Positions 424 to 5,793 of a stretch of 6,575 bases of DNA are shown one piece after another. Both the position numbers and the translations under genes were made by a program. This stretch comes from a virus (lineage: Duplodnaviria; Heunggongvirae; Uroviricota; Caudoviricetes): IMG/VR virus record IMGVR_UViG_2531839588_000017, positions 1 to 6,575 of that record. One strand, given 5' to 3'. A model generated the notes under the pieces. It was not told the DNA's origin. It saw only the letters and a program-made list of their open reading frames with translations, and did not search any database. Within the stretch, counting starts at the first letter, position 1; the number at the start of each line of letters is the position of its first letter.

Positions 424-1382
424 TTACTCCTTGTCCATTGCGTACAGCCCATTAACCAGAGCAAACTGTGGCACCCCGTCCGCGATGAAAGTCGCATTAA
501 CTCCGCAGGCTTCGCGGATAGCGGGTGCCACAATCTCCGCCCCGCCACCGACAACCATCACCCGCCCGTAACCCGAAAACCCCGCCAGCGCGCGGATCAC
601 TCGTTGTTTCAGTGTTTCTTCCTTTTCACGAATAACCGCCATCAGGCTGGCGTAATGCGCGTCATTGTGGATGTGCTGGCGCAACCAGGCTTCATCATGG
701 CGATGTTCGATAATGGTATTGGCGATGTGGTGACTGGTGCGCATACCGTTAGTGGCCATCACCGACAGTACGGCATCGGCCATCAGGGAAACGCCTACGT
801 GTGGATCGCAAAACACCTGGCTGATACCTGCCAGTTGTCCCTGAACCTTTGCCACATCCAGCGTGGTTCCGCCTAAATCCACAATCAGCAGGGATTCAAA
901 CGGACTCATGTCAGCCAGTGCTTTAAAACCAGCCGGAATGGATTCAGGCATAACCCGTACGTTACGGATAGTGAATGCTTTTCCGTTCTGGTACGCCACC
1001 GGGCGCATGACGTTGCTTTTTTGCGGTTGATGTTGGCCATGTCCGGCTGTGCGTTTGTGTCGAAATACTCGCTCAGTGGCAGGGTGACAACCACATCCAC
1101 TTCCTGTGGTGTGATGCCTGATTTGACCAGCGCGTGATGAATGGCAATTACATTCACATCGCTGTACTGGTATTGCGTGTCGGTCGTCTGGACAAAGCGA
1201 TCGCTGACCGGATCAAAACCATAGCGCACGCCATCAAGCATGTAGTTCGCGGGCTGCGTGCCACCGAACGGCGCAGACCATTCCGACTTGAAGCTGTTCG
1301 GGCTGATGGCGTTGCGGCGTTCGCCGTTCTCAGTCCATGCCAGCTTGATGTTGGTGGAGCCGTCGTCGATACAAATTTTCAT
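424..1382 (-). pseudogene. parM: ParM/StbA-like actin-type segregation ATPase interrupted by one frameshift (fragments 906..1382 and 424..1008)
   Basis: N-terminal fragment MKICIDDGSTNIKL... carries the phosphate-1 motif DDGST; C-terminal fragment carries phosphate-2 IVDLGGTTLDV and the adenosine motif VVGGGAEIV. Both fragments match R1 ParM from recall. The frame changes right after ...NINRKK at the plus-strand T6 run 1017-1022; one extra base there restores a single ORF of about 319 aa. AAGGA Shine-Dalgarno 9 nt upstream of the ATG at 1382. Confidence 0.75.
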
Positions 1383-1406
1383 GTCGCTTTTCCTTATGTT
1401 GATTAA

Positions 1407-2003
1407 TTAATCGGTTACAGGATTTTTAAATCCCGCTTTTGCCTGTTTTGTGCGCGCTTCATATATCGCGGCGCGTTTTTGCTCATTTACGGGATTTGTG
1501 AGTCCCGTTTCTGTCTGTTTTTTGTTTCCACTGGTCAGGCCACCCCGCAGCAGGTCTGCTTTGCGGTGGGCGCGTTCAGTGGTTTCACTGATTCTCTGTG
1601 CGTGCTCTGCGTCACGGATGGCGCGCAGCATGTCAGAAAGCACGGTAACGGGGGTTTTCATGGTGTTCTGGTCCTGCTGAAGTGTGGATGCCAGACGTGC
1701 GGCGGCTTCGGGGTCTGATGCCCCCAGTTGTTCCAGATAGCTGGCGACCGGGTTATGGCGGATCTCTGTGCTGCTTACGCCGTGATTACGGCTCAGGCGC
1801 TGCCAGAGCTGCGTGATTCGGCTGTCCGGGCGGGTATCCGGTTTGCGTACAATTTCAAATCCCTGCGGTGCAATGATGCTGCCGTCAACGTACAGGCTGC
1901 CGCCCCGTAACAGGTGCTGCATCTGCTGTTCACCGATATGCAGGCCGAGAGATTCAGCAGACTCCCGCCATTCTTTAGCGAGTAATTCGTGGTTATCAGG
2001 CAA
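1407..2003 (-). CDS. Hypothetical protein (198-aa ORF); may be the displaced C-terminus of the gpA-like gene and/or contain a separate small gene
   Basis: Open frame ending 24 nt upstream of parM. The track start is a TTG and the same frame has stops immediately upstream (2004-2144), so the true start is unclear. An internal ATG at 1659-1661 (MKTPVTVLSDMLRAIRDAEH...) could start an 84-aa product. The 3' end overlaps dyad repeats that may be parMR control sites. Confidence 0.4.
   Translation of the reverse strand: MPDNHELLAKEWRESAESLGLHIGEQQMQHLLRGGSLYVDGSIIAPQGFEIVRKPDTRPDSRITQLWQRLSRNHGVSSTEIRHNPVASYLEQLGASDPEAAARLASTLQQDQNTMKTPVTVLSDMLRAIRDAEHAQRISETTERAHRKADLLRGGLTSGNKKQTETGLTNPVNEQKRAAIYEARTKQAKAGFKNPVTD
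1420..1507 (-). promoter_or_regulatory. Candidate parMR promoter/operator or centromere-like sites (two dyad-symmetric 16-bp motifs)
   Basis: GGATTT-N5-TCCCG occurs twice (1420-1435 and 1492-1507), each internally dyad-symmetric (GGATTT/AAATCC; CGGGA/TCCCG), 40-125 bp upstream of the parM start. There is no conventional intergenic region upstream of parM to hold a parC-type site. Confidence 0.25.
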
Positions 2004-2533
2004 AGGCCGCTGCTGTTTGCGGCTCTGTGTCCAGTCTGCATTTCATCACTGCTGTTTTTTGCCTGTTTGTCACGAGCGAACGCATCAGCGCCCGGCGTTC
2101 GTGCCGTTTCAGTGAGCGCACCATTCGTTCACTCAACGCCGTCAGGAGCTGCGGCCACGGTGCTGGCCGTTCTTCCGGCTGTTCTGTCCCGTTGTTGTCG
2201 TTTCCTGTACACGGGGACAGTTATTGCCACGAGTCCAAGGGGCGGCAGGGCCGCCCTGAAGGTCAAAACCATTTTCGCGGGCGCTGTCTTCCGCTTCCGG
2301 TTTACGTCTTACCAGCTTCCAGTTATCCGGATGCGTGCACACCGGGAGATCCCCGATGAGGGCGACCAGATCCCGTAAATCTGTACGCTCTGTTCGCCGT
2401 AATCGTTCAGCCATCGCGAGGTCGTAGGCGGTGCGAATCAGGTAGTCTTGCGGGAACAAGTACGCCCCCTGTTTTCATGTAGGGGCAAAACACCGGCATC
2501 AGCGGCAGCGAGTACCGCATCCATTGCGTCTCT
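2001..2533 (-). pseudogene. C-terminal remnant of the gpA-like replication initiator, split over at least two frames
   Basis: Protein-like translation continues from the core ORF in another frame (2460-2535: ...WMRYSLPLMPVFCPYMKTGGVLVP), then in a third frame (2459 down to about 2240: QDYLIRTAYDLAMAERLRRTERTDLRDLVALIGDLPVCTHPDNWKLVRRKPEAEDSARENGFDL). In-frame stops at 2142-2144 and below interrupt that frame, while a different frame is open from 2238 to 2001. Confidence 0.35.
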
Positions 2534-3469
2534 TCAGCGTTGCGGGCCTTCCGGGTTGCGTGCCATCTGGCTGGCAAGGCGGCGCAGTTCACGCCACACC
2601 TGACGGGAGGGGATGCCAAAGAACTGGAACTGGCGGACCCGGTGAAGGCGCGCCCAGCCGATGGCGCGCTCCACGCTCTCGGCCATTGATTTTCCGGTTT
2701 CGTGGTCAACGCGTGGTTTGCCCGTTTTCGGGTCGATTCCATCCACGGCGCGGCTGTCCAGGTTTTTTCCGATGTAGGTGGCGATGTAGCTGGTTGGCGT
2801 GCCTTTGGAGCCGTCGACGTACTCCACCTTAAAGCGCGGAGTAATATCATTGCCCAGCTCGTGGCGGTCTTCCTGAATGGCAATATCGCGGGTGATGGCC
2901 ACGATGCTGTCGATTTCTTCCGGATGAGCAAAGACCATCATATGCCAGTGCACGGTGCCGTCATGGTGAGGCTCCACCGTGCGGATGCCATACCAGCGCA
3001 GGCCGTCGCGGTTCAGTTTTTTGCGGACCGCCGCAAAAAACGTGTTAACCAGGTAATCGCTGGAGTCGCGCATGGTGGCCCCGTTCCATTTGGGATTCGG
3101 ATGACCGTTCTCTGTTGTGGCGTGGTATTTTGACGGGCAGGTGACAGTCAGAAACACCGCTTTGTCGCCACGGGCTTCGGCCAGAAGTTCCAGTCCCTTC
3201 ATGGTGGCCATCATTTCTGCCTTACGGTGAACCGGGTTACTTACTCCCGCGTAATACACCGTCTCGAGATCAATCGTGAACCCGTCTTCATTTTCCAGCA
3301 TGAAACTTTTCAGGAAATCGCGTGTTTTCTCGCGCTGTGCGCGAAACTCGCTTAACGCGTCCTGGCTCAGATAGGGTGATGTTTTTCTGGAAACCAGACA
3401 GGCGGCGCGGAGTTGTTCTTCTCTCCACTCCAACGTAACAGCCACAGTTTGCGTTTCCACCATCCGCAC
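2534..3469 (-). CDS. Rolling-circle replication initiator, P2 gpA / phiX174 A family (HUH endonuclease core, 311-aa fragment)
   Basis: Contains ...TCPSKYH..., the HUH motif VEPHHDGTVHWHMMVF (about 2942-2950) and the paired catalytic tyrosines SYIATYIGKN (YxxxY, about 2774-2788), followed by ...QVWRELRRL. The track start is a GTG with an in-frame TGA directly upstream (3473-3475), so the ORF looks N-terminally truncated. Confidence 0.75.
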   Translation of the reverse strand: MRMVETQTVAVTLEWREEQLRAACLVSRKTSPYLSQDALSEFRAQREKTRDFLKSFMLENEDGFTIDLETVYYAGVSNPVHRKAEMMATMKGLELLAEARGDKAVFLTVTCPSKYHATTENGHPNPKWNGATMRDSSDYLVNTFFAAVRKKLNRDGLRWYGIRTVEPHHDGTVHWHMMVFAHPEEIDSIVAITRDIAIQEDRHELGNDITPRFKVEYVDGSKGTPTSYIATYIGKNLDSRAVDGIDPKTGKPRVDHETGKSMAESVERAIGWARLHRVRQFQFFGIPSRQVWRELRRLASQMARNPEGPQR

Positions 3470-3678
3470 AGGTCAGGCGAAGGATTGCGCCCGGCAGCAG
3501 TCCGTTCCGGTTCGCTCTTGTTCAGGCTCTAATGTGGGGCATGGTGCAGGGTAAGCATCGGCCAGCATCGTAGCCTTCACTTACATCCATGGTCAGTCGC
3601 CATCTGCCCAACCATCCAGAGTTCAAGGTGCTGCTGAACATGCCGCGTCATGGTGGCCAGCGTCTGTATCTGGTGTTG

Positions 3679-4215
3679 TTAGCTGCGGCAGGTAAAGCAA
3701 ATCGTCCAGGCGTTCGCGCCGGCAAGGGAGCGATAACCCGGTGTCAGCCAGGCGTCGTGCGTCCAGACGTTCGAATATTTTGCGCAGGGTTCCGGGCTAG
3801 CGTTCGCCTGCCAGCTCTTTTTGCCTTTCCGGCGATCGCTTCCTGTTTTTTGCGCAGGAAAGAGAGGTGGCGAATAAGCGGATCGCGCAGATAGGACAGG
3901 CAGTGCCTTTAGTGTGGCAAAGGCACGGGCTACTGGGTCTTGTTCTGTTGCCCGGCGCTTACTGATGATGCTCTGTGCCAGCTTTTCACGCTGTCCGGCT
4001 TCCTCAAGGGATGCCATGAGTTTTTTACCCATGGCGGATTGTGCGAAAAAGGCTTCTTCCTTCGCTTCCTGTTCTTCCTGTGCCCTTTTGTCTGCCTCAA
4101 GGTAGTAACGGATGGCGCGTTGCAGGTCGGTTTCAGTTTCCTGCCTGCGCTCCGTAAACCTGGCCGGATCAATGGCTGGCCGTGGTTCATTCCAGCTCCA
4201 TGCAAACTCGCTCAT
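3679..4215 (-). CDS. Probable N-terminal fragment of the gpA-like replication gene (hypothetical protein if independent)
   Basis: Sub-ORF of the 3679..4242 track ORF, starting at the ATG at 4213-4215, which overlaps the TGA stop of the upstream 129-aa ORF (ATGA). The first 100 or so residues are protein-like (MSEFAWSWNEPRPAIDPARFTERRQETETDLQRAIRYYLEADKRAQEEQEAKEEAFFAQS...); the distal part is low-complexity, suggesting frame loss before the stop at 3679. Assignment to gpA is by position and inference only. Confidence 0.4.
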   Translation of the reverse strand: MSEFAWSWNEPRPAIDPARFTERRQETETDLQRAIRYYLEADKRAQEEQEAKEEAFFAQSAMGKKLMASLEEAGQREKLAQSIISKRRATEQDPVARAFATLKALPVLSARSAYSPPLFPAQKTGSDRRKGKKSWQANASPEPCAKYSNVWTHDAWLTPGYRSLAGANAWTICFTCRS

Positions 4216-4601
4216 GGCTGGTATCCCGTCACGCGCTGCCACTCCTGCGAGAAGATGGCGGAAAGGCGGTTAAATTCAGCGGTGTATTCACTCAGCGAGG
4301 CACACCCGCCAGCAGTGCGATGCGCCAGCATTGCCGCGAATACGGAGGCCGGGGAGTCGTAATACGCCAGCAGTGATTCGCCGTGTGGTGTCAGGCAGTG
4401 CAACGCCAGCCCGTGTGGTGTGAAGTCCACGCGGTAGCAGTCGTCTACTGTGAAATAAAGGGTGTCCGCATTCTCCGGTTTTGTGGTGCGTGCTCTGTTG
4501 TCACGACCACGGATGTAGAGATCAAATAATCCCTGAAGAATGGGAGCCAGACGGGTGTCCTGTGTGCGCACCCATCTTGTGAAGTCATGAGCGTCAATCA
4601 T
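4212..4601 (-). CDS. Hypothetical protein, 129 aa
   Basis: ATG at 4599-4601 with a weak AAAGAG Shine-Dalgarno about 10 nt upstream; stop overlaps the next ORF's ATG (ATGA at 4212-4215). Protein-like composition (MIDAHDFTRWVRTQDTRLAPILQGLFDLYIRGRDN...). No family recognised. Confidence 0.55.
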   Translation of the reverse strand: MIDAHDFTRWVRTQDTRLAPILQGLFDLYIRGRDNRARTTKPENADTLYFTVDDCYRVDFTPHGLALHCLTPHGESLLAYYDSPASVFAAMLAHRTAGGCASLSEYTAEFNRLSAIFSQEWQRVTGYQP

Positions 4602-4673
4602 GCTGCAATTCTCTTTACTACAGATGTGCGAAGGCCTCCCGCCGCAAGGTGCAGGAAAGGCCTGGAACAGGAA

Positions 4674-4904
4674 TTAATGGAGTTTGTTTTGCTGCTGAAA
4701 GAGCTGCTGAAGCTCGCGCAGATCATCCGCCAGATAGCTGAAAACAGCGGATGAATAGAGGTTTGAAAGTTCGCAGCTACGCTCATGCAGCATATTGATG
4801 TGCATGATTTTAGCGACGCGGAATGCGCGGGAAAGTCTGCGGTTGATTTCAGTCTGGATGTGACGACGCTCCGCGATAGCGCGGTGCTGTTTGCGGTTTG
4901 CCAT
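4674..4904 (-). CDS. Small basic protein, 76 aa; first ORF downstream of the antisense-RNA locus (positional analogue of P1 icd / P4 epsilon, identity not established)
   Basis: ATG at 4902-4904 preceded by AGAGG about 9 nt upstream and a 6-bp hairpin (4925-4930 / 4939-4944). Translation MANRKQHRAIAERRHIQTEINRRLSRAFRVAKIMHINMLHERSCELSNLYSSAVFSYLADDLRELQQLFQQQNKLH. Confidence 0.55.
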   Translation of the reverse strand: MANRKQHRAIAERRHIQTEINRRLSRAFRVAKIMHINMLHERSCELSNLYSSAVFSYLADDLRELQQLFQQQNKLH

Positions 4905-4950
4905 GGTGTTTGGCCTCTTCGTTTGTGAGTTTTTGGATACTCACCAACCA

Positions 4951-4968
4951 GAGTTGAGAATCTCGGGG
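4951..4968 (-). promoter_or_regulatory. Sense target site C for the antisense RNA (transcript 5'-CCCCGAGAUUCUCAAC-3')
   Basis: Plus-strand GAGTTGAGAATCTCGGGG. Shares GTTGAGAATC(C/T)CGG with the copy at 5127-5143 and is complementary to the B element at 4981-4993. Lies about 50 nt upstream of the 76-aa ORF start. Confidence 0.4.
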
Positions 4969-4976
4969 TGGCGAGA

Positions 4977-5038
4977 CGTACGGGGTTCTCAACACCGGCA
5001 AACGAAGAAACCGGCCCGACCGAAGTCGGCCCCGTACG
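4977..5038 (-). ncRNA. Candidate c4/CI-like antisense immunity RNA (structured core)
   Basis: Minus-strand transcript has a 9-bp closing stem (CGUACGGGG at 5038-5030 pairing with CCCCGUACG at 4985-4977) enclosing a CCGAC-UUCG-GUCGG tetraloop hairpin, a short CCGG/CCGG hairpin, and the element GUUGAGAA, which is complementary to the two flanking AUUCUCAAC sites. No protein-like ORF in the segment. Confidence 0.45.
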
Positions 5039-5086
5039 CCCCACCATAATTCGTGTGCGAAAAAGACGTGGCAATACAGTACGCAC

Positions 5087-5107
5087 AAAAAAACCGCTGG
5101 CGCGGTT
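5087..5107 (-). terminator. Intrinsic terminator between sense site A and the RNA core
   Basis: Minus-strand hairpin AACCGC-GCCA-GCGGTT (plus 5092-5107) followed by a U-run (plus A-run 5087-5093), about 120 nt downstream of the predicted end of the 99-aa gene. Confidence 0.45.
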
Positions 5108-5126
5108 GTGCGCTTCGTTTGTCAGC

Positions 5127-5143
5127 AGGTTGAGAATCCCGGC
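5127..5143 (-). promoter_or_regulatory. Sense target site A for the antisense RNA (transcript 5'-CCGGGAUUCUCAACC-3')
   Basis: Plus-strand AGGTTGAGAATCCCGG; 12 of 13 positions complementary to the B element, same orientation as site C. Confidence 0.4.
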
Positions 5144-5229
5144 ACCCGTTTTATGAGGTGCAGCAGAAATGTAACCTGACTGATTGCGGCATGGCAAGCG
5201 GTTTTTTTGTGTGTGCATGCTCTGATTTC

Positions 5230-5530
5230 TTACTGGTTCAGAAAAAAAATCAAAAACCTTGTCAATGCGTTGCAACAGCTCTTGCTGTATTGCTTCCGGC
5301 GTTTCCGGTTCGCCTGGCGCCTCCAATGTCGCGCAGAAATCAGCGATTTCATGATGGAGCGTCAGGCGAATGGCAGGAGCCGTGGTTCTGGCGTGCTCCA
5401 GCTCATCCAGCAATGCCAGCACCGCAGACGGCGAGAGCATTGCGCGAAATGCCAGTAATTTTTGAGGTGTTGCCATTCGTTGCAGGGCAAATGCCAGTTC
5501 GCGTAGCTTCTGGTGGTTGATGGTGCTCAT
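5230..5530 (-). CDS. Hypothetical protein, about 99 aa (the literal ORF runs on to 4598 with no stop)
   Basis: ATG at 5528-5530 overlaps the TGA of the upstream wHTH gene (ATGA). The first 96 residues are protein-like (MSTINHQKLRELAFALQRMATPQKLLAFRAMLSPSAVLALLDELEHARTT...QQELLQRIDKVFDFF). After the plus-strand A8 run at 5242-5249 the translation turns low-complexity (S/T/R-rich) and crosses the RNA locus and the 76-aa gene. One base fewer in the run gives ...DFFLNQ-stop at 5230-5232. The end coordinate is inferred. Confidence 0.45.
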
Positions 5531-5793
5531 GTTCTGGCTTCCTTCAGTAGCTGGTTAAACATGTGAGTAAGTGGATTGCTACACCCGAACGGCATCGGGT
5601 TTACGTGGTAAGAAGCCTGGCCTCCAGTTTTGCGAGCGCGACCACCTGTGCTGCGGTTTGTTCTGATGACTAAGCCGCCGCGCCAAAGTTGGCGTAACTC
5701 AGCATTAATGGCTGTGGTTGGAGTATTCAGTGCTGCTGCGATTTCTCCGCCGCTACAACCCGGATGGGTAGCGATGTAGTCCAGAATGGTCAT
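5527..5793 (-). CDS. Winged helix-turn-helix DNA-binding protein, 88 aa
   Basis: ATG at 5791-5793 overlaps the stop of the upstream 67-aa ORF (ATGA). LDYIATHPGCSGGEIAAALNTPTTAINAELRQLWRGGLVIRT has the helix-turn-helix-wing pattern of MarR/ArsR-like wHTH proteins. Confidence 0.6.
   Translation of the reverse strand: MTILDYIATHPGCSGGEIAAALNTPTTAINAELRQLWRGGLVIRTNRSTGGRARKTGGQASYHVNPMPFGCSNPLTHMFNQLLKEART

Follow-up and report, generated by a model that had tools for sequence, protein, structure and literature searches.

The window, the whole stretch of 6,575 nt that was analysed, very probably holds on its minus strand a complete RNA-based module of secondary immunity or anti-repressor control, of the type known from P4 CI, P1 c4, N15 and Gifsy-1 IsrK. 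An isrK-type leader RNA is followed there by a C4-type antisense RNA. The family membership of both RNAs, the layout, the base-pairing potential between the antisense RNA and its flanking sites, the covariation of this pairing in related loci and the overlap of one target site with the ribosome-binding site of a 76-aa ORF are all observed (Table 1). The host element is a P88-like (Xuanwuvirus) E. coli prophage of the P2 family, and the module lies in its early operon. With its capsid, terminase, Cox, C and integrase genes, this is a complete P2-family phage. Because it carries the P2-type C/Cox switch, with a C-type helix-turn-helix repressor and a Cox gene, the RNA module should be a second regulatory layer and not the sole immunity system; for the same reason a biological need for the second layer is presumed. 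To our knowledge, P2-type phages are usually described with the C/Cox switch as their only one, and in the literature on P88-like or P2-like phages we found nothing specific on an RNA immunity module.

Table 1. Positions of the module features and neighbouring ORFs in the window
Feature	Position	Strand	Remarks
Predicted sigma-70 promoter of the module	5168..5197	-	-35 TTGCCA (5197-5192), 18-nt spacer, -10 TACATT (5173-5168); consensus scan
isrK-type leader RNA, equivalent of P4 seqA / P1 a1b1	5087..5161	-	Rfam RF01394
a1, upstream target/decoy site	5129..5141	-	RNA CGGGAUUCUCAAC, complementary to a'; covaries with a' in relatives
b1, upstream target/decoy site	5113..5121	-	RNA CAAACGAAG, complementary to b'
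Intrinsic terminator of the leader	5087..5107	-	Stem-loop AACCGCGCCAGCGGUU; its last two U open the run of seven U (5093-5087)
C4/CI-type antisense repressor RNA	4964..5051	-	Rfam RF01695; RNA of 88 nt
b', recognition element in hairpin loop of the C4 RNA	4999..5007	-	CUUCGUUUG; three-copy element and covariation
a', recognition element of the C4 RNA	4981..4993	-	GUUGAGAACCCCG; three-copy element and covariation
a2, downstream target on the mRNA leader	4953..4965	-	CGAGAUUCUCAAC; covaries with a'
b2, downstream target	4915..4925	-	CAAACGAAGAG; overlaps Shine-Dalgarno AAGAGG (4919-4914); sequence read directly
76-aa ORF, first gene under the switch	4674..4904	-	Pfam PF25738; BLASTP against P4 epsilon
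129-aa ORF, no assigned role	4212..4601	-	phrog_3237, unknown function
310-aa ORF	4598-5530	-	Spans the module in the window

Two RNAs and three copies of two recognition elements

An earlier note on this DNA had proposed an antisense RNA of the P1 c4 / P4 CI class and predicted a minus-strand match to the Rfam C4 model around 4975-5045. Such a match was found at 4964-5051, covering model positions 1-87 of 87 with 79.2 bits (gathering threshold 45, E = 7.7e-15). Its closing stem of 17 bp encloses two hairpins, one capped by UUCG and a second that exposes b' in its loop. The a' element is located in the junction strand, its 5' part single-stranded and its 3' part within the closing stem. The minimum-free-energy fold equals the family consensus (-48.6 kcal/mol, z = -4.67), and none of 200 shuffles was as stable. 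Across 35 relatives, pairing is complete (100%) in the closing stem and in the first hairpin, with compensatory changes; among all pairs tested, those of the leader hairpins included, 5 are changed on both sides. Conserved contexts, 5' AAUUA/UGG and 3' GCCACC, are visible at the flanks.

The leader RNA matches the isrK model over its full length (model positions 1-77 of 77, 62.0 bits against a gathering threshold of 50, E = 7.5e-12), and it is composed of a 5' hairpin (5161-5142), a1, b1 and the intrinsic terminator in this order. A terminator scan of the minus strand gave a stem at 5107-5092 followed by U7, which is the 3' hairpin of the isrK model and is invariant in 35 relatives; it lies between the upstream and middle copies of the a element, where the earlier note had seen a terminator. 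The predicted promoter would direct initiation at about G5161, that is, position 1 of the isrK match, and its sequence hardly varies among 38 distinct relatives. Both features of the isrK class, an own upstream promoter and a 3' Rho-independent terminator, are predicted here by consensus. The isrK-like segment by itself folds no better than shuffles (z = -1.5). The other Rfam model for such leaders, RF03163 c4-a1b1, gave no match in 4800-5300 even at E <= 5, so that only the isrK model covers the leader, although the a1 and b1 sites are present and covarying. Elsewhere the RF03163 model scores 44.1 bits in P4, 42.4 in N15 and 56.2 in a P1-like phage (gathering threshold 46.7).

Two further signals near the leader were inspected. 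A promoter-like site at 5074-5046 (TTGCCA-17-AATTAT) is unlikely to be a dedicated C4 promoter because the implied start at about 5039 would fall within the C4 closing stem. A by-eye search of the spacer 5086-5052 for a LexA box (CTGT-N8-ACAG) gave the half-site TACTGTAT only, and therefore a link to the SOS response cannot be claimed. The P88 paper describes recovery of the phage after mitomycin C treatment, without an untreated control.

The three-copy element that gave rise to the proposal was borne out. With at most one mismatch, GTTGAGAAYCYCG has exactly three sites in the window, 4953-4965 (+), 4981-4993 (-) and 5129-5141 (+), where 0.04 copies are expected, and three copies were reached in 0/200 dinucleotide shuffles. 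The orientation reported earlier, two direct copies with an inverted one between them, is correct, and the coordinates reported then (4951-4968, 4981-4993 and 5127-5143) mark these very sites with 2-3 nt of padding. A second recognition element, which had been missed, accompanies the first: the b element CTTCGTTTG lies at 4917-4925 (+), 4999-5007 (-) and 5113-5121 (+), with 0.07 copies expected and again 0/200 shuffles reaching three. Of the two elements, only b reaches into the ribosome-binding site of the 76-aa ORF. The sense-antisense-sense layout of P1 and P4 proposed before is thus complete (promoter, a1b1, terminator, C4 with b' and a', a2b2 with the ribosome-binding site, ORF), with the correction that there are two recognition elements as in P1, not one.

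Three copies could also arise by chance, or from a generic REP-like or IS-derived repeat that plays no part in regulation. The elements are indeed short (9-13 nt), and supporting evidence for such an origin was not found. Three copies were never reached in the shuffles for either element, both elements are confined within the window to one locus in the order +, -, +, the three copies change in concert among relatives, and they sit where the two covariance-model matches predict them. We rejected this explanation, whose probability is negligible. The generic repeat at unrelated loci, which the earlier note had named as an outcome that would refute its proposal, is excluded by the confinement to the locus and the concerted change.

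The middle copy had been described as lying in a protein-free segment of strong secondary structure. The folding stands (see above for the C4 RNA), but the segment is crossed by the 310-aa ORF on the same strand, and in some RefSeq genomes an 'ash family protein' is annotated at the locus. A protein-coding origin, with the repeats as incidental features of the 310-aa ORF or of an Ash family protein, is nevertheless very improbable. Residues 120-191 of this ORF (4958-5173) show a weak match to Pfam Phage_ASH (PF10554, E = 0.002), its 18.8 bits being below the gathering threshold of 26, and most relatives retain a frame of about 215 codons without a stop. However, the ORF exists only because of one extra A in the homopolymer at 5242, which is absent from relatives, and elsewhere the upstream gene stops after 99 aa. 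Within the 76-aa gene, purifying selection is not seen on the long frame (N/S 2.68, against 0.73 in the 76-aa frame), and the hypervariable segments described below vary in RNA-complementary sets, not codon-wise. The 310-aa or 'Ash' protein was rejected on the window-specific extra A, the sub-threshold Pfam match and the lack of purifying selection. An ORF starting from an AUG inside C4 had no Pfam match. Moreover, the Phage_ASH model falls on the obsolete 'cI protein' ORF of P4 and on N15 gp32 exactly at the C4 RNA, and therefore the family probably reflects translation of an RNA gene; judging from these overlaps, this appears to hold for at least a part of it. This is also an annotation problem, as public genomes call the RNA locus 'hypothetical protein' or 'ash family protein'.

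Covariation and hypervariable cassettes in relatives

In 35 distinct related loci the three copies covary strongly, which supports the claim that the middle element pairs with each of its flanking copies; pairing was compared with slid partners and both-sided changes with shuffles. For a1:a' and b1:b' together, 95.5% of cells are paired (27-56% with slid partners), 126 cells are changed on both sides (33 in shuffles), and the covariation score is 0.61 against 0.12. The downstream pairs a':a2 and b':b2 behave in the same manner, with 93.5% paired, 119 both-sided changes against 32.5 and a score of 0.56 against 0.13. In the b1:b' helix every cell is paired in the 35 sequences and both-sided changes are seen at 7 of the 9 pairs, while b2:b' is paired in 96% of cells across relatives. 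By the segment-wise duplex calculation, the a1:a' duplex has -15.0 kcal/mol and the b2:b' duplex -14.4 kcal/mol.

The recognition sequences of the related prophages are hypervariable, yet they vary in matched sets. In 81 loci we counted 5 a-types and 12 b-types in 14 combinations, and the three copies were always matched. Sequence diversity is 0.316 in these cassettes; the remainder of the module has 0.066, and the third codon positions of the neighbouring gene have 0.083. When the C4:target energies were calculated from segment-wise duplexes for a 14 x 14 matrix, the cognate pair was the best in every row, with means of -24.2 kcal/mol for cognate and -11.1 kcal/mol for non-cognate pairs. The a/b segments are thus predicted from the duplex energies to be interchangeable specificity cassettes, and therefore the RNA of one prophage would silence only phages of the same a/b type (heteroimmunity). 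Partial cross-talk would be expected between types that have one cassette in common, such as the window type and the L079 type. Heteroimmunity between P1 and P7 is defined by differences in a'/b' specificity. The matched hypervariable cassettes also make a natural set of predicted orthogonal RNA-RNA pairs, which may be used for studies of heteroimmunity evolution or as orthogonal translational repressors.

A wider reading of the cassettes can be offered only tentatively and is, in our opinion, rather unlikely. According to it, P2-family helper-type E. coli phages share the RNA-immunity-plus-epsilon module of their satellite P4, and the freely recombining cassettes form an RNA 'barcode' of combinatorial kind on which diversifying selection acts, the whole module being a weapon in conflicts among phages and between phages and satellites. 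The numbers that it builds on are observed within this one phage lineage: at least 5 a-types and 12 b-types, with a diversity some four to five times as high as in the backbone and at third codon positions. If true, mutual silencing of anti-repressor and replication genes between P2-like phages and P4-like satellites, whether resident in the same cell or newly arriving, would depend on the barcode, and the module might be the evolutionary source of the P4 immunity/derepression system and not simple housekeeping immunity.

Proposed switch and its presumed target genes

The features fit a switch that would operate as follows. Transcription of the minus strand would begin at about 5161 from the promoter at 5197-5168, and most transcripts would end at the intrinsic terminator (5107-5087), giving an isrK-type RNA of about 75 nt that bears a1 and b1. 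The read-through transcript would include the 88-nt C4-type RNA (5051-4964), which is probably excised by RNase P and other nucleases; P1 and P4 are the precedents for RNase P processing of C4-type RNA (cited in PMC5499578). The exposed segments b' in the hairpin loop and a' in the junction strand would then pair with b2 and a2 in the leader of the next gene, and the b':b2 duplex would hide the Shine-Dalgarno sequence of the 76-aa ORF and block its translation. Since a1b1 holds the same target sequences, the short leader RNA may in addition capture C4, either in cis or in trans, and as such a decoy or anti-antisense set the threshold of the switch.

The predicted point of action on the 76-aa ORF can be read from the sequence: b2 (4925-4915) covers AAGAG of the AAGAGG located 9 nt upstream of the AUG (4904-4902). 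This coverage is found in all 12 b-types, in which the invariant 3' end of b2 is the Shine-Dalgarno sequence itself. The frame has a coding signature (N/S 0.73 against 2.2-2.7 in other frames). Sequence comparison shows distant homology of the 76-aa protein to epsilon, the anti-repressor of P4 (BLASTP, 29% identity over 66 aa, E = 1e-8); its Pfam match to the derepression protein family PF25738 is marginal (29.3 bits against a cut-off of 27), its RefSeq homologue is labelled 'derepression protein', and NCBIfam has no model that matches either this protein or P4 epsilon. It is likely, from this homology, that the product is an epsilon-like anti-repressor, and such a candidate would act on the P2-type C repressor.

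The earlier note had extended the control to the 129-aa ORF and the replication gene. Its first target, the 76-aa ORF, is supported by the covered Shine-Dalgarno sequence. The 129-aa ORF and gpA are possibly controlled as well, via polarity by analogy with P1 and P4. Untranslated RNA of the 76-aa ORF would be prone to Rho-dependent termination, as in P1 icd-ant and P4 eta/kil, and expression of the 129-aa ORF and gpA would be lowered accordingly. The 76-aa mRNA is C-rich and G-poor (C/G 1.3-1.8), but this only slightly exceeds the operon background and is not enough to define a Rho site. In the RefSeq annotation of the close relative L001, the end of the 129-aa ORF overlaps the start of gpA by 4 nt (CDS 10052-10441 and 7230-10055). 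The 129-aa ORF itself has no match in Pfam or NCBIfam and no similarity to P4 orf151.

Termination could also be the main event, as in the classical view of P4, so that pairing of C4 with a1b1 and/or a2b2 raises termination at the leader terminator or downstream and silences gpA, the block of the 76-aa ORF being secondary. The intrinsic terminator directly 3' of b1 is consistent with this view, and so is the position of gpA downstream in the same operon, with no intrinsic terminator predicted in 4600-4960 of the minus strand. P4 CI RNA pairs with seqA and seqC to cause premature termination (PMC4825925, PMC3632133). On the other hand, the Shine-Dalgarno sequence is covered by b2 in all b-types, which suggests that the exclusion of ribosomes is the primary step. 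For P4, termination is itself reported to depend on blocked translation of the first ORFs. We regard a primary role of termination as possible but doubtful.

Another arrangement of the same parts, which we consider unlikely, though not to be dismissed lightly, puts activation at the centre as in Gifsy-1 IsrK. There, the short isrK-like RNA would open a read-through mRNA that is folded in cis, a1b1 with a'b', into an inactive form, and would allow translation of the anti-repressor; the C4-like segment would mainly be a structural part of the mRNA and not a free repressor in trans. The minimum-free-energy fold of the 276-nt read-through RNA (-111.3 kcal/mol) does pair the a1b1 and a'b' regions in cis, and C4 is bound slightly more strongly by a1b1 than by a2b2 (mean -26.9 versus -24.2 kcal/mol). 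In Gifsy-1, IsrK provided in trans raised anrP translation about 140-fold, and the cis mutations G28A and G31A gave higher basal translation (PMC4825925). In the same phage, IsrK was not counteracted when the C4-like RNA was expressed constitutively (PMC4825925), and therefore the simple picture of a C4 repressor with an IsrK decoy may be incomplete. However, covariation with a' and b' is no less tight for a2 and b2 than for a1 and b1, and a purely cis a1b1:a'b' model has no need of this; the processed RNA is established as a trans-acting immunity factor in P1, P4 and N15. The activation by a short leader and the repression by C4 that we favour are mutually compatible.

Relation to known immunity systems and distribution

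The switch is textbook knowledge from P1 c4 and P4 CI and is contained in curated Rfam models, and therefore its presence is no discovery in kind. What is of interest is that a very common type of E. coli prophage has a P4-like RNA control layer before an epsilon-like anti-repressor candidate and the replication gene. The likeness to P4 is close. The isrK model matches P4 over seqA and its terminator with 60.8 bits and the C4 model over the CI RNA with 74.9 bits, in the same order and orientation as in the window; because P4 gives the same pair of Rfam matches, the comparison to P4 CI and P1 c4 is one of homology, not of analogy alone, and the class membership claimed at the outset is supported by this pair together with the C4 match in the window. 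Complementarity of both a-type and b-type is visible in the P4 alignments, and an epsilon-family gene followed by a replication gene lies downstream in the same operon.

The P4 immunity region is ordered PLE - seqA - CI RNA/seqB - seqC - ... - epsilon - orf151 - alpha, and several differences are evident. P4 is a satellite, whereas the host of our module is a complete helper-type phage of the P2 family with an additional protein repressor switch. The gap between C4 and the epsilon-like gene is 60 nt here and about 245 nt in P4, where it presumably holds the eta/kil ORFs. The replication protein of P4 is the alpha primase-helicase, while gpA is a rolling-circle endonuclease, and the 129-aa ORF is not similar to orf151.

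P1/P7 immI (P51 - a1b1 - c4 - a2b2 - icd - ant1/ant2) shares with the window the order a1b1 - c4 (b', a') - a2b2 with two recognition elements, as well as the placement of the ribosome-binding site of the first ORF under b2. The genes downstream are different: icd and ant are absent from the ORFs here, and Icd and Ant1 were found only in the P1-like comparison locus. Upstream of Icd-Ant1 in that P1-like phage, the C4 model scores 71.9 bits and c4-a1b1 56.2 bits. Its leader passes with c4-a1b1 and remains below the cut-off with isrK (44.7 against 50), the reverse of the window leader with 62 bits for isrK and no c4-a1b1 match.

Gifsy-1 of Salmonella (isrK - STnc1160/orf45 - anrP) resembles the window in an isrK-family leader with an own promoter and a leaky intrinsic terminator, both predicted here. 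It also has a downstream processed RNA of about 80 nt complementary to IsrK and a translationally controlled anti-repressor gene (PMC4825925), whose counterparts here would be the processed C4 RNA and the 76-aa ORF. The authors of that study noted IsrK as a structural homologue of P4 seqA (PMC4825925), and IsrK and STnc1160 are highly transcribed in lysogens under all conditions tested (PMC7067206). Gifsy-1 differs in that it is lambdoid while the phage of the window belongs to the P2 family, that AnrP is coupled to a 45-codon upstream ORF while here the target is the Shine-Dalgarno sequence of the epsilon-family candidate itself, and that the emphasis is on activation by the short IsrK.

The isrK model also matches the equivalent regions in N15 and an Stx2 phage, and in N15, Stx2 F039 and the P1-like phage the cargo downstream of the isrK-C4 tandem is of the Rha type or Icd-Ant. 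In its anti-immunity region the phage-plasmid N15 has the tandem (isrK 62.4 bits, C4 78.8 bits) upstream of gp32-gp30, and a small processed RNA is said to control its anti-repressor; the host phage and the cargo genes are different, and the annotated gp32, which matches Phage_ASH, overlaps the C4 RNA. In the lambdoid Stx2 record GenBank LC710660, a Rha-family regulator is preceded by two annotated RNAs, first 'isrK Hfq binding RNA' and then 'C4 antisense RNA', the cargo in this backbone being Rha or an anti-repressor and not epsilon-like. The tandem has been published as 'IsrK-C4 immunity system' (PMC3632133). E. coli EC556 (NZ_AP027440.1, 4427387-4427697) has the module with 100% identity, and in UTI89 (NC_007946.1, 941867-942177) the identity is 87.6%, probably because its a/b type is a different one. 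In our survey the module was present in 1184 of 5426 complete E. coli genomes (22%), and a distant DNA search found it in 161 phage records.

Two RNAs and their recognition elements

The window corresponds to the early (replication) region of an Escherichia coli prophage of the P2 family, and every gene in it lies on the minus strand. In a close relative annotated in RefSeq, integrase comes first, followed by a C-type HTH repressor, Cox, several small ORFs, a MarR-type regulator and a 99-aa ORF; a seemingly empty gap of ~325 nt then separates these from a 76-aa 'derepression protein', a 129-aa ORF, the gpA replication endonuclease and ParM/ParR-like genes. This gap is where the RNA module is located. 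The Rfam search at gathering thresholds gave exactly two matches in the window, C4 antisense RNA and isrK, and the former is where the earlier note had expected it (minus strand, around 4975-5045). The fold of the C4 segment agrees with the consensus of the family: its closing stem has 17 bp, one hairpin is capped by UUCG and the other has b' in its loop (folding energy -48.6 kcal/mol, z = -4.67).

Features of the RNA module in 5' to 3' order on the minus-strand RNA
Feature	Position	Strand	Remarks
Predicted sigma-70-like promoter	5197-5168	-	TTGCCA, 18 nt, TACATT; start G5161 is isrK model position 1
isrK (RF01394)	5161-5087	-	62.0 bits (cut-off 50), full length
a1	5141-5129	-	upstream copy of 'a'
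b1	5121-5113	-	upstream copy of 'b'
Intrinsic terminator	stem 5107-5092, then U7	-	3' end of isrK model
C4 antisense RNA (RF01695)	5051-4964	-	79.2 bits (cut-off 45), full length
b'	5007-4999	-	middle, inverted copy of 'b'
a'	4993-4981	-	middle, inverted copy of 'a'
a2	4965-4953	-	downstream copy of 'a'
b2	4925-4915	-	downstream copy of 'b'

Three copies of the 13-nt 'a' element (GTTGAGAAYCYCG), which the earlier note had correctly located and oriented, lie in the window at 4953-4965 (+), 4981-4993 (-) and 5129-5141 (+). A second, 'b' element (CTTCGTTTG) had been overlooked there; our repeat search found it at 4917-4925, 4999-5007 and 5113-5121, likewise in +/-/+ orientation. The chance expectation for 'a' is 0.04. 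A chance or generic repeat is excluded, because three copies of either element were reached in 0 of 200 shuffles and the three copies are matched across relatives. The order of the elements is the full a1b1 - c4(b'a') - a2b2 arrangement as in phage P1.

Some other structures were found around the elements. A hairpin GUGAGU...ACUCAC lies between a2 and b2 (4926-4952, minus strand) and is kept in relatives via G-U or compensatory changes, as judged by eye from the alignment; it may bring both targets of the C4 RNA into position. Another promoter-like site, TTGCCA-17-AATTAT (5046-5074, minus strand), adjoins the 5' side of the C4 RNA, overlaps its first bases and is also kept in relatives, though it may simply reflect a conserved processing context, since its implied start would be inside the C4 closing stem. 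A 21-nt inverted repeat of 90% complementarity (5081-5101 and 5194-5214; ACGCACAAAAAAACCGCTGGC / GCAAGCGGTTTTTTTGTGTGT) joins the leader terminator region to the stretch that covers and directly precedes the -35 box of the module promoter, and its second arm resembles a weak terminator tail on the plus strand.

Concerted variation of the cassettes

We collected 80 loci from IMG/VR, chosen for homologues of the 76-aa protein at 87-100% identity, and built alignment A1 from the 267-nt module in its 35 distinct versions. The backbone is almost invariant, whereas both kinds of cassette, a and b, are hypervariable (diversity 0.316, versus 0.066 in the rest of the module and 0.083 at the third positions of codons in the adjacent gene), and the three copies of each element vary in concert. 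For a1:a' and b1:b', standard pairs occupy 95.5% of cells versus 27-56% when the partners are slid by 1-3 columns, with both-sided changes in 126 cells versus 33 in shuffles (covariation score 0.61 versus 0.12). Similarly, a':a2 and b':b2 show standard pairs in 93.5% of cells and 119 both-sided changes versus 32.5 in shuffles (0.56 versus 0.13).

Among 81 loci, 5 a-specificities and 12 b-specificities occur in 14 combinations, always with three-way matching, and the same b-type is found with different a-types, indicating that the cassettes reassort. The mean segment-wise duplex energy of C4 RNA with its target is -24.2 kcal/mol for cognate pairs versus -11.1 kcal/mol for non-cognate ones, and the cognate pair ranks first in each row of the 14 x 14 matrix. 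Such matched variable cassettes are what an RNA-based heteroimmunity determinant should look like, and the difference between P1 and P7 is a heteroimmunity parallel. Their combinatorial specificity is among the more interesting aspects of the locus.

Possible control of the anti-repressor and replication genes

The b2 element (CAAACGAAGAG) overlaps the Shine-Dalgarno sequence AAGAGG (4919-4914) at five of its six bases, 9 nt 5' of the AUG at 4904, and the Shine-Dalgarno sequence itself is the invariant 3' end of b2 in all b-types. The 76-aa protein belongs to the Pfam derepression family PF25738 (29.3 bits versus 27), shares 29% identity with the P4 epsilon anti-repressor (E = 1e-8), and its frame is under purifying selection (N/S 0.73 versus 2.2-2.7 in other frames). 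The 129-aa ORF matched no known family, and no similarity to P4 orf151 was found.

Transcripts from the module promoter would mostly stop at the leader terminator, giving a short isrK-type RNA with a1b1, while read-through transcripts would supply the C4 RNA, presumably freed by RNase P as with P1 c4 and P4 CI (precedent cited in PMC5499578). Pairing of C4 RNA with a2b2 would shut off translation of the epsilon-like ORF and probably lower downstream transcription too. The translational block could spread to gpA by Rho-dependent polarity, as in P1 icd-ant and P4, because in the annotated relative the 129-aa ORF runs 4 nt into the start of gpA and no minus-strand intrinsic terminator was predicted within 4600-4960. 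The mRNA is rich in C and poor in G, a bias that barely exceeds the operon background. The leader may act as a decoy or anti-antisense against C4, since it shares the target sequences, binds C4 at least as well as a2b2 (mean -26.9 versus -24.2 kcal/mol) and, when the whole read-through RNA is folded to minimum free energy, pairs through its a1b1 region with that of a'b' in cis. Such a role agrees with activation by IsrK in trans in Gifsy-1, where anti-repressor translation increased ~140-fold (Hershko-Shalev et al., 2016; PMC4825925). The activator-centred (IsrK) and the termination-centred (classical P4) readings are variants of one system. Lysogens of Salmonella express IsrK and the processed C4-like STnc1160 RNA at high levels in every condition tested (PMC7067206), which supports constitutive activity of such promoters in the prophage state. 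As the phage also has a C/Cox switch, the module is best regarded as a second layer; this layer would silence the anti-repressor and replication genes in the lysogen and in homotypic superinfecting phages.

Annotation, relatives and genomic setting

The kind of system is already known: Rfam models detect it directly, equivalent loci are annotated in some phage records, including both ncRNAs in one GenBank record, and the 'IsrK-C4 immunity system' has been published (Barquist et al.; PMC3632133). P4 shows the same two matches in the same order, isrK over seqA and the terminator (60.8 bits) and C4 over the CI RNA (74.9 bits), and the tandem is also present in N15, an Stx2 phage and a P1-like phage. 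The reasoning of the earlier note, which had proposed an antisense-RNA immunity module of the P1 c4 / P4 CI layout without database searches, was accurate. The link between helper-type phages and satellite P4 via a common RNA-plus-epsilon module is another of the more interesting aspects. We found no paper on the module in P88-like or P2-family phages, and public annotations of these prophages give the locus as a protein or leave it blank.

A protein-coding reading was rejected: the 310-aa ORF of the window hinges on a single extra A in the A-run at 5242, its Phage_ASH match is under threshold, the long frame shows no coding selection, and the same Pfam model also falls on the RNA gene in P4 and N15. 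Compared with the annotated relative (L001), the extra A (5242-5249) shifts the frame of the 99-aa gene upstream, whose stop at 5232-5230 is thereby bypassed, creating an ORF (4598-5530) that spans the 76-aa gene and the RNA genes. The PF10554 Phage_ASH model matches translated isrK-C4 regions in P4 (8330-8521; 59.7 bits, the obsolete 'cI protein' ORF), N15 (2118-2213; 28 bits, gp32) and the window (4958-5173; 18.8 bits), and RefSeq 'Ash family protein' annotations coincide with this locus; for the most part, the family may represent translation of a non-coding RNA gene. Elsewhere, ~70 deletions of 1-3 nt in 1014-3895 (clusters at 2034-2540 and 3430-3840), seen against every related locus examined and shared by no relative, split gpA (and ParM at 1014) into many short ORFs. 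They suggest sequence of low quality, or possibly a pseudogene in heavy decay; no such indels occur in the RNA module.

Of 5426 complete E. coli genomes, 1475 match the whole window, mostly with an identity of 90-97%, and the best matches to the module region (4600-5550) among phage records are P88-like phages (genus Xuanwuvirus). The 311-nt module occurs in 1184 of the 5426 genomes, with up to four copies per genome. Copies at least 99% identical to that of the window are in only 16 genomes, while 1069 have copies in the 80-90% band, a spread in keeping with the coexistence of many specificity types. At ~4596 and ~5211-5219, similarity to different sets of related prophages ends, so that the RNA module and the 76-aa gene look like an exchangeable mosaic cassette inside the early operon. 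Directly 3' of gpA, this integrated prophage carries ParM and a ParR-like 'plasmid partitioning/stability' gene (105-1382; 5878-7153 in L001), which hints at a possible plasmid-like phase or stabilisation function.
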